Source of the DNA: Escherichia coli
GTDB taxonomy: Bacteria; Pseudomonadota; Gammaproteobacteria; Enterobacterales; Enterobacteriaceae
Length of the DNA: 64,000 nucleotides
NCBI RefSeq assembly: GCF_051903065.1
Contig: NZ_CP178438.1
Direction: 5' to 3' (one strand)
Shown here: in pieces, positions 17,986 through 18,759 of the stretch
How the letters are laid out: the number at the start of each line of letters is the position of its first letter
Position numbering within the stretch: the first letter of the stretch is position 1
Notes under the pieces: generated by a model
Told to the model about the DNA's origin: nothing
Database searches by the model: none
What the model saw: the letters and a program-made list of their open reading frames with translations, nothing else
Position numbers and translations under genes: made by a program

Positions 17986-18759
17986 TCAAAAATTAGGTGA
18001 GTAACGGACCGGGGACATAGCTCCTTTTTTTCTTAATTCATCTGGTATTTTTTTTCCAAGATAAAGATTTGCTATTTCAGGTGGGGCTTCTCGGCCTTCA
18101 AAACCATAGCGAGAACTTTGTGTTGCCTCAAAGTCAGGATCCTCGTCCCAGTATTTCATCGTAGGGAAATTTTCACGTGTTGATTTGAGCCATTTATCAG
18201 CAATGAAAACCCCCCGAACGATTCCCCTTACAGTAGCAAGAATAACTTCTGCTTGGCTGGCGCGAGAGACATTAATGCGCCAGCTAAATCGAACCGCATC
18301 ATAAAGCTCTGAATCCTTTGCACTTCTGTTAACGGAAATCATTAATGCTTTATGATGAAATGTTATGGTTTCGGGTTGATATGTTGCTATCAACTCTTTG
18401 ACATGCGCGGCGCCGAATTCATTGCTGCCAGCACCATTCATGATATTCGTTAACCCAGGGTAGGCATCAATAAGTGCAGCTTCAACTTCGTACGCCGTCT
18501 TTTCATCAGTCATTCCGTGTCGATGGATGACATGGATAACTTCAAGTCCTGCTAACCTTATTTCTCTAATTTGCTTTAGCTTGTTGCTCAGTAACTCGTC
18601 ATCATCAGTCGCTGCCACTTCACCGCGCATATGGGCAAATACGCGGTTACCTTTGCCTTTCCCTACATAGAAGGTGCTTCCGTCCCTCGGATCAATCAAT
18701 CGGTATACATACCAGCCAAGGTGTTCAATTACTCCAGAAGGAAACTCAGTAATATCCAT
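17986..18759 (-). CDS. GIY-YIG nuclease-domain protein (about 257 aa) with uncharacterised C-terminal domain
   Basis: N-terminus contains WYVYRL...[14 protein letters not shown] (GIY/YIG, Arg, His) then Glu and Asn about 50-65 residues later; ATG at 18759 chosen over upstream TTG. Confidence 0.6.

Follow-up and report, generated by a model that had tools for sequence, protein, structure and literature searches.

A gene for a small GIY-YIG nuclease lies beside a retron in Escherichia coli, within the 64,000-nucleotide stretch of DNA analysed here (the window), and the question raised by the locus is what such a nuclease does there. A preliminary description had left three readings of the gene standing: a free-standing homing endonuclease, an effector of the adjacent retron, or a defence nuclease. 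It is the last of these that is borne out, since the protein is the published PD-T4-3, or CMoRE. The gene is almost certainly an intact copy of this characterised defence enzyme, a type IV restriction enzyme, with the neighbouring retron a separate module and not its partner. The coordinates of the features of the locus are collected in Table 1.

Table 1. Features of the CMoRE-retron locus (window coordinates unless another locus is named)
Feature	Position	Strand	Basis and remarks
CMoRE / PD-T4-3 gene	17986..18759	-	257 aa plus stop; PADLOC, PDB, RefSeq, PHROG 5356
GIY-YIG nuclease domain	18415..18759	-	PF22945 and residue check; roles from PMC12923530; limits approximate
C-terminal modification-sensing domain (about residues 125-257)	17989..18387	-	Function from 5hm-dCTP co-crystals (PMC12923530); limits approximate
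Candidate sigma-70 promoter, TTGTGA-17 nt-TAATAT	18792..18820	-	8/12 matches, below scan threshold; inferred from sequence
Hairpin copy 1	17931..17963	both	Between convergent pin (+) and CMoRE (-); direct repeat and RNA fold
Hairpin copy 2	18950..18983	.	About 190 nt upstream of CMoRE start; direct repeat and RNA fold
Ec67-family retron	RT-Toprim 19471-21306; module 19319-21306	+	NCBIfam and PADLOC
Retron ncRNA 12-nt inverted repeats	a1 19319-19330; a2 19440-19451	+	Sequence
Post-pin slot loci	Window 17926-17990; L002 (K-12) 5240-6413; L005/L006 1535-3424

The minus-strand reading frame starts with an ATG at 18759 and ends with a stop at 17986, giving 257 codons and a protein of 257 residues. 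The same limits are given to the RefSeq CDS WP_000355484.1 of strain 2014C-3075, the DNA of which is 100% identical to the window over 17900-19470. Mechanically, a TTG at 18810 could also serve as the start and give a longer protein; the 257-residue form is that of the RefSeq annotation, and the crystallised proteins likewise begin MDITEF or MDINEF. The PADLOC PD-T4-3 model (PDLC04031), a profile of 256 positions, matches the protein end to end (E = 2.4e-140; residues 1-256, profile positions 1-255), and PHROG 5356 matches it with E = 2e-143. Only two deposited sequences were found when the PDB was searched with the protein, these being 9U75/9U8D (573.6 bits, E = 3.7e-172, 253 of 257 residues or 98.4% identical) and 9U7U/9U7Z (503.2 bits, 85.2% identity, 38 substitutions). 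The 9U75 sequence is the exact product of a chromosomal gene in O157:H7 TW14359, and the window protein is distinguished from it by four substitutions, T51A, E55D, Q169K and N197H (window residue first). The E-values of the PADLOC and PDB matches are far beyond chance. The search of NCBIfam with the window protein gave no family, and the generic Pfam GIY-YIG model gave a marginal score (E = 0.47), so that the LEM-3-like model is needed to recognise the domain.

A good deal is known of this enzyme. PD-T4-3 came out of the functional selection of Vassallo et al. 2022 (PMC9519451), where a GIY-YIG nuclease was among the new systems, and was renamed CMoRE by Liu et al. 2026 (PMC12923530). With clones that carried the native promoter, protection against T2, T4 and T6 was about 10^5-fold, the gene is active alone when cloned in BL21, and the normal growth of CMoRE cells at a multiplicity of infection above 1 indicates direct defence and not abortive infection (PMC12923530). 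The enzyme binds modified DNA only; with Mg2+ or Mn2+ it cuts DNA containing 5hmC or 5ghmC and not C or 5mC DNA, so that T-even DNA carrying either modification is degraded and the whole T4 genome is depleted, and phage T4(C) is resistant (PMC12923530). Cleavage follows the pattern CN11/N9G, leaves 2-nt 3' overhangs and requires two 5hmC residues, and the enzyme is a tetramer made of two head-to-tail dimers (PMC12923530). Both cleavage and T-even defence have been demonstrated for the O157:H7, APEC O1 and Klebsiella proteins (PMC12923530). Modified T4 DNA, but not T4-GT7 DNA, is degraded by a Capnocytophaga homologue of 48% identity, which at high dose acts on Mom-modified Mu DNA as well (PMC12366544).

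The structural work assigns roles to particular residues that can be sought in the window protein. [quoted passage not shown] No homologue of the C-terminal fold was known to the authors, whether from sequence or from structure (PMC12923530). All the residues named in that paper (the three tyrosines, the acidic loop at 52-55, R80, V92, L96 and Y127) are present in the window protein.

The GIY-YIG signature that the preliminary description had read in the N-terminus holds, with its motifs where it had put them and a match to the Pfam LEM-3-like GIY-YIG family (PF22945) over residues 28-110 (E = 3.6e-14). The first motif stretch is W16-Y17-V18-Y19-R20-L21 and the second F30-Y31-V32-G33-K34-G35-K36-G37-N38-R39-V40-F41-A42-H43. 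R39 and H43 keep the numbers first given to them, and E91, E93, N105 and N108 fall within the region of about 91-108 to which acidic and asparagine residues had been ascribed. When the window protein was aligned with APEC O1 CMoRE and with the homologues of Serratia phage Moabite and Pseudomonas phage OBP (39-46% identity), the invariant residues included Y17, Y19, Y31, R39, H43, E93, N105 and Y127 and did not include E91; the catalytic glutamate is thus more likely to be E93, and the asparagine more likely to be N105 than N108. The equation of the catalytic Arg and Glu with R39 and E93 is our own assignment; the text of PMC12923530 gives these two residues without numbers. Together with these positions, the N-terminal domain holds V92 and L96 of the oligomer interface and an acidic loop that reads D52-D53-D54-E55. 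This is the state of APEC O1 CMoRE, while the O157:H7 protein has DDDD, and the positions of the T51A and E55D substitutions lie in or beside this autoinhibitory loop.

In the C-terminal 150 or so residues, where no motif had at first been recognised, Pfam likewise gave no match and no DNA-binding domain. The proposed layout, in which another domain comes after the GIY-YIG nuclease domain, is correct. This second, sensor domain differs from that of the crystallised O157:H7 protein by two substitutions only, Q169K and N197H, and the Q169 of the window protein is absent from both crystallised proteins.

The same layout prompts the reading of the gene as a free-standing GIY-YIG homing endonuclease, in which a sequence-reading tail would serve to promote the gene's own spread. 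The two domains and the similar size of the protein fit this, as does the ‘putative homing nuclease’ label given by depositors to jumbo-phage homologues that are 39-46% identical. GIY-YIG homing endonucleases of the I-TevI type share with CMoRE an N-terminal core containing Tyr, Tyr, Arg, Glu and Asn. However, in CMoRE the motif gains a further Tyr (GIYxY-YIG), a lid loop of acidic residues is present, the protein is tetrameric and a modification sensor replaces the sequence-reading tail (PMC12923530). The C-terminal domain contains no Pfam DNA-binding module and binds 5hm-dCTP in crystals, which makes it a sensor of 5hmC and 5ghmC and not a sequence-specific DNA-binding tail, and cleavage depends on cytosine modification, follows only the loose CN11/N9G pattern and depletes the whole T4 genome (PMC12923530). 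Moreover, in E. coli the gene lies in cargo slots at prophage ends, between its own hairpins, and neither within nor next to a conserved target gene. Neither of the marks of a homing endonuclease, a sequence-specific C-terminal module and a position at a cognate target gene or intron, was found, and the homing reading, to which we attach next to no probability, is for practical purposes refuted.

Full-length homologues of CMoRE with 39-46% identity are encoded by virulent jumbo phages: Serratia phage Moabite (L011 2501-3265), Pseudomonas phage OBP (L012 2492-3253) and Klebsiella phage N1M2. These homologues keep the catalytic residues and Y127 and do not have the four-residue acidic lid loop. 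They could serve in phage-against-phage competition with rivals that contain hmC.

The mechanism of the type IV enzyme is demonstrated for the 98.4% identical O157:H7 protein, and the window allele can be expected to act in the same way. The protein would form a tetramer, as a dimer of dimers, in which the C-terminal domain would hold a flipped-out 5-hydroxymethyl- or glucosyl-hydroxymethyl-cytosine, one dimer reading a pair of modified cytosines with a spacing of about 21 bp. The cut between these cytosines would be made by the N-terminal GIY-YIG domain, in the CN11/N9G pattern with 2-nt 3' overhangs and with Mg2+ or Mn2+ as the metal. The lid loop of four acidic residues (DDDE in the window protein) is predicted to repel ordinary DNA and in this way to protect the host chromosome. 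The likely outcome is that incoming T-even phage DNA would be destroyed directly and the cell would survive. The Ec67-family retron nearby is not a partner of the enzyme; it is a defence module of its own, complete in itself, that shares the cargo hotspot with it.

A copy of an active enzyme may still be silent or inactive in its source strain, owing to poor translation without a Shine-Dalgarno sequence, to repression or to the allele substitutions. The Shine-Dalgarno sequence reported as missing is indeed missing: the 16 nt before the start codon read TAGATATTGCAAA-ATG, and none is present before the TTG at 18810 either. A consensus scan of 17850-19500 for promoters (threshold of 9/12 matches) and terminators gave no minus-strand promoter and no terminator. 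The -10 hexamer of the below-threshold candidate promoter (Table 1) ends 32 nt 5' of the ATG, in a region identical in O157:H7 TW14359. Among the native-promoter clones, defence was much weaker with the APEC O1 gene than with either of the other two (PMC12923530), and a study of strain NILS69 suggests that native expression can be limiting (bioRxiv 2024.12.20.629700). On the other hand, the reading frame is intact. The 193 nt upstream of it are 92.8% identical to those of O157:H7 TW14359, and only one of the mismatches falls within the proximal 84 nt. Since the native-promoter clone of the O157:H7 gene gave its protection of about 10^5-fold from nearly the same upstream sequence (PMC12923530), the unusual expression signal that had been thought possible is not needed. 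The PD-T4-3 gene is also active against Tevenvirinae in its native host, NILS69 (bioRxiv 2024.12.20.629700). We regard a silent copy as unlikely.

The locus lies at the right end of a prophage whose genes specify an HK97-type head, a contractile Mu-like tail and a small terminase subunit of the P27 type; baseplate genes (ymfQ), a tail-fibre segment that can be inverted, and pinE are also present. Read from left to right, pin (+, 17338/17373-17928) is followed by CMoRE (-), by the retron with its ncRNA and RT-Toprim (+, 19319-21306), by IS1 (21351-22118) and then by betA/betB. The invertible host-range segment is of the Pin type, with inverted 20-nt sites (90% identical) at 15392-15411 and 17293-17312 around alternative tail-fibre and tail-fibre-assembly genes. 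On the other side of the locus, the IS1 element begins 44 nt past the RT stop and is followed by betA/betB. What comes after the retron in strain 2014C-3075 is an integrase fragment, then yagU, ykgJ and the ecp operon. Because 2014C-3075 is otherwise identical and has that stretch, it appears to have been lost from the window's genome by an IS1-associated deletion.

The CMoRE gene is itself flanked by a 28-nt direct repeat (17936-17963 and 18956-18983; 89% identical, with 0 chance matches in shuffles), the copies of which form the cores of 33-34-nt hairpins. The loops of these hairpins are longer than the terminator scan allows, and the hairpins were therefore folded directly. Copy 1 is terminator-like on both strands (AAA...hairpin...TTTAT), folding at -25.6 kcal/mol (z -5.2) on the plus strand and -20.9 (z -4.3) on the minus strand. 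Behind copy 2, the minus strand reads TTTTTG; this copy folds at -25.2 kcal/mol (z -3.1) on the plus strand, with a z of -1.1 on the minus strand. Homology with other genomes starts at 17926-17931 regardless of the left neighbour, and in all the contexts examined hairpin copy 1 bounds the cassette on the left; on the right the homology breaks at 18952, at 18977 or at 19119-19151; thus the homology with O157:H7 ends at 18952 and that with TST3 and PK8276 starts at 18977. These breakpoints, two of which coincide with hairpin copy 2, indicate that the hairpins mark the edges of a cassette, and we settled on terminator-like cassette boundaries as the reading of the 28-nt repeats.

Other identities for these elements were considered and rejected. 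The repeats are not taken as crossover sites for Pin, as the pix-like inverted sites lie elsewhere (at the ends of the invertible segment), nor as a tRNA-derived att site, as ARAGORN finds no tRNA there; the left half of repeat copy 2 resembles the anticodon arm of tRNA-Ser. The match in Rfam of the hairpin to the 3' end of the Shigella sRNA CssrB is sub-threshold (32.4 vs 76 bits), and instead of an sRNA gene we read a shared terminator-type hairpin. A 57-aa reading frame in the intergenic region (19097-19270, -) was rejected as a gene because the homology breakpoints at 19119-19151 cut through it.

Some related sequences can be recorded here. The sole tRNA found by ARAGORN in the window, tRNA-Ser(GGA) at 42252-42332, is unrelated to the CMoRE gene. 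In O157:H7 TW14359 (L003 6960-7010, compared with window 18940-18990), the sequence past 18952 is the 3' part of a tRNA-Ser(CGA)-like gene, with variable arm, T arm and CCA, and looks like the remnant of an att site abutting the CMoRE cassette. A third, diverged copy of the hairpin, with about 60 nt of shared downstream sequence, is found in the chromosomal ykgJ-ecpE intergenic region (L001 25606-25701).

The retron was rightly placed next to the gene at the prophage end, and it has the features of the Ec67 family, with an RT fused to Toprim and an ncRNA upstream. The RT scores 741.9 bits with the NCBIfam model retron_Ec67_fus (NF038237), against a cut-off of 450, and it matches the PADLOC RT-Toprim model with E = 3.9e-222 in an entry listed as ‘single gene’. 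An Rfam search of the ncRNA gave no family match.

That the nuclease is an effector or accessory partner of this retron, the two making up one system, is suggested first of all by their position. They are physically adjacent and share a divergent intergenic region of 711 bp, and the block 17928-21350 is found intact, with 99.3% identity, in a second and different prophage of strain elppa6, so that the pair has moved together at least once. Of 5426 complete E. coli genomes, 837 contain the CMoRE gene (at 95% DNA identity or above) and 19 contain the retron, while the junction of both (query covered to at least 80%) is present in 8. Adjacency in 8 of the 19 retron genomes exceeds what independence would give from a background of 15% (Fisher p = 0.005), but the 8 adjacent copies do not count as independent events, since their identity to the window across the junction is 98.6-100%. 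In most genomes, moreover, the two occur apart: 829 of the 837 CMoRE genomes have no retron at the junction, and at least 11 of the 19 retron genomes have no adjoining CMoRE gene.

Each of the two modules is found in other company. The gene for WP_000355484.1 lies beside a lipase-family gene in FG31-1 and FDAARGOS_1277, and close variants lie next to a 461-aa hypothetical protein and a restriction endonuclease (A30) or next to an AraC-family gene (O157:H7), the neighbours varying between genomes and the CMoRE gene remaining constant, as is the case for a single-component system. The retron, at 99.6-99.9% identity, follows a truncated pin and the gene for a 629-aa DUF262 protein in TST3 and PK8276, this protein matching the PADLOC mREase_IV model from end to end, and in H6 it lies in a lambdoid prophage, between DUF977 and hokD. 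An identical retron module thus occurs in three different prophage contexts, at least two of which are without the CMoRE gene. These varied contexts, together with an RT above the Ec67 cut-off and the single-gene flag, indicate that CMoRE and the retron are independent modules.

The organisation of the locus and the published assays lead to the same conclusion. The two modules are read from opposite strands and are separated by a terminator-like hairpin, the CMoRE gene being enclosed by hairpins of its own; neither the consistent co-occurrence nor the co-orientation with the RT and ncRNA that would be expected of a retron effector is found. CMoRE defends BL21 alone (PMC12923530), and the RT carries its own Toprim in a family classed as single-gene by PADLOC and NCBIfam. 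The earlier suggestion of a retron effector therefore does not stand; the partner reading is largely refuted, and we consider it extremely unlikely. Given that the adjacent copies are near-identical and that both modules target slots at prophage ends, their adjacency is read as a matter of shared location and descent and not of function. Another form of linkage may be imagined, in which the CMoRE-retron pair that moved as a 3.4-kb block between two prophages is a functionally layered unit, its adjacency having been selected. If this were true, the type IV enzyme would destroy modified T-even DNA and the retron would act as a back-up when a phage inhibits or evades the nuclease, but we hold such selection to be very unlikely.

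Comparison with known systems places the independent CMoRE module more closely. The O157:H7 protein (9U75, 9U8D), also of 257 residues in two domains, has all the named functional residues, and in O157:H7 TW14359 the gene lies directly downstream of pinE, as it does in the window. It differs in the four substitutions (T51A, E55D, Q169K, N197H) and in having an AraC-family gene and not the retron as outer neighbour. APEC O1 CMoRE (9U7U, 9U7Z; 85.2% identity) shares the DDDE acidic loop and N197 with the window protein, whereas its 38 substitutions fall mostly in the C-terminal domain and its defence from the native promoter is weaker (PMC12923530). The PvuRts1I/AbaSI family acts on the same 5hmC and 5ghmC substrates with a similar combination of nuclease and sensor, cutting at a fixed distance between two modified cytosines, but uses another nuclease fold and another sensor domain (PMC12923530).

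A parallel in position is found with an unrelated protein. McrA is an HNH-fold enzyme with specificity for 5mC and 5hmC. In the e14 element of K-12 its gene fills the same slot, immediately behind the pinE stop codon where an e14-type element ends on the right, and McrA too is a modification-dependent restriction enzyme. However, the protein is unrelated to CMoRE and is encoded on the opposite strand relative to it, and the similarity between K-12 and the window stops at the pin stop codon. In all, this slot after pin at the right end of e14-type prophages contains three unrelated type IV genes: mcrA in K-12 e14, CMoRE in the window and in O157:H7, and the gene for the 629-aa DUF262 mREase_IV protein in TST3 and PK8276. 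The slot may be a hotspot that is biased towards enzymes acting against modified DNA.

The family to which the gene belongs is already known, its mechanism and structure having been published between 2022 and 2026, and nothing is added here on mechanism. The practical value of the identification lies in annotation: the product, which at present carries in RefSeq only the name ‘LEM-3-like GIY-YIG domain-containing protein’, can be named as CMoRE/PD-T4-3, a type IV restriction endonuclease. The locus further illustrates how the tail-fibre/pin end of E. coli prophages accumulates and exchanges defence modules, among them a type IV enzyme, a retron and a lipase-family gene.
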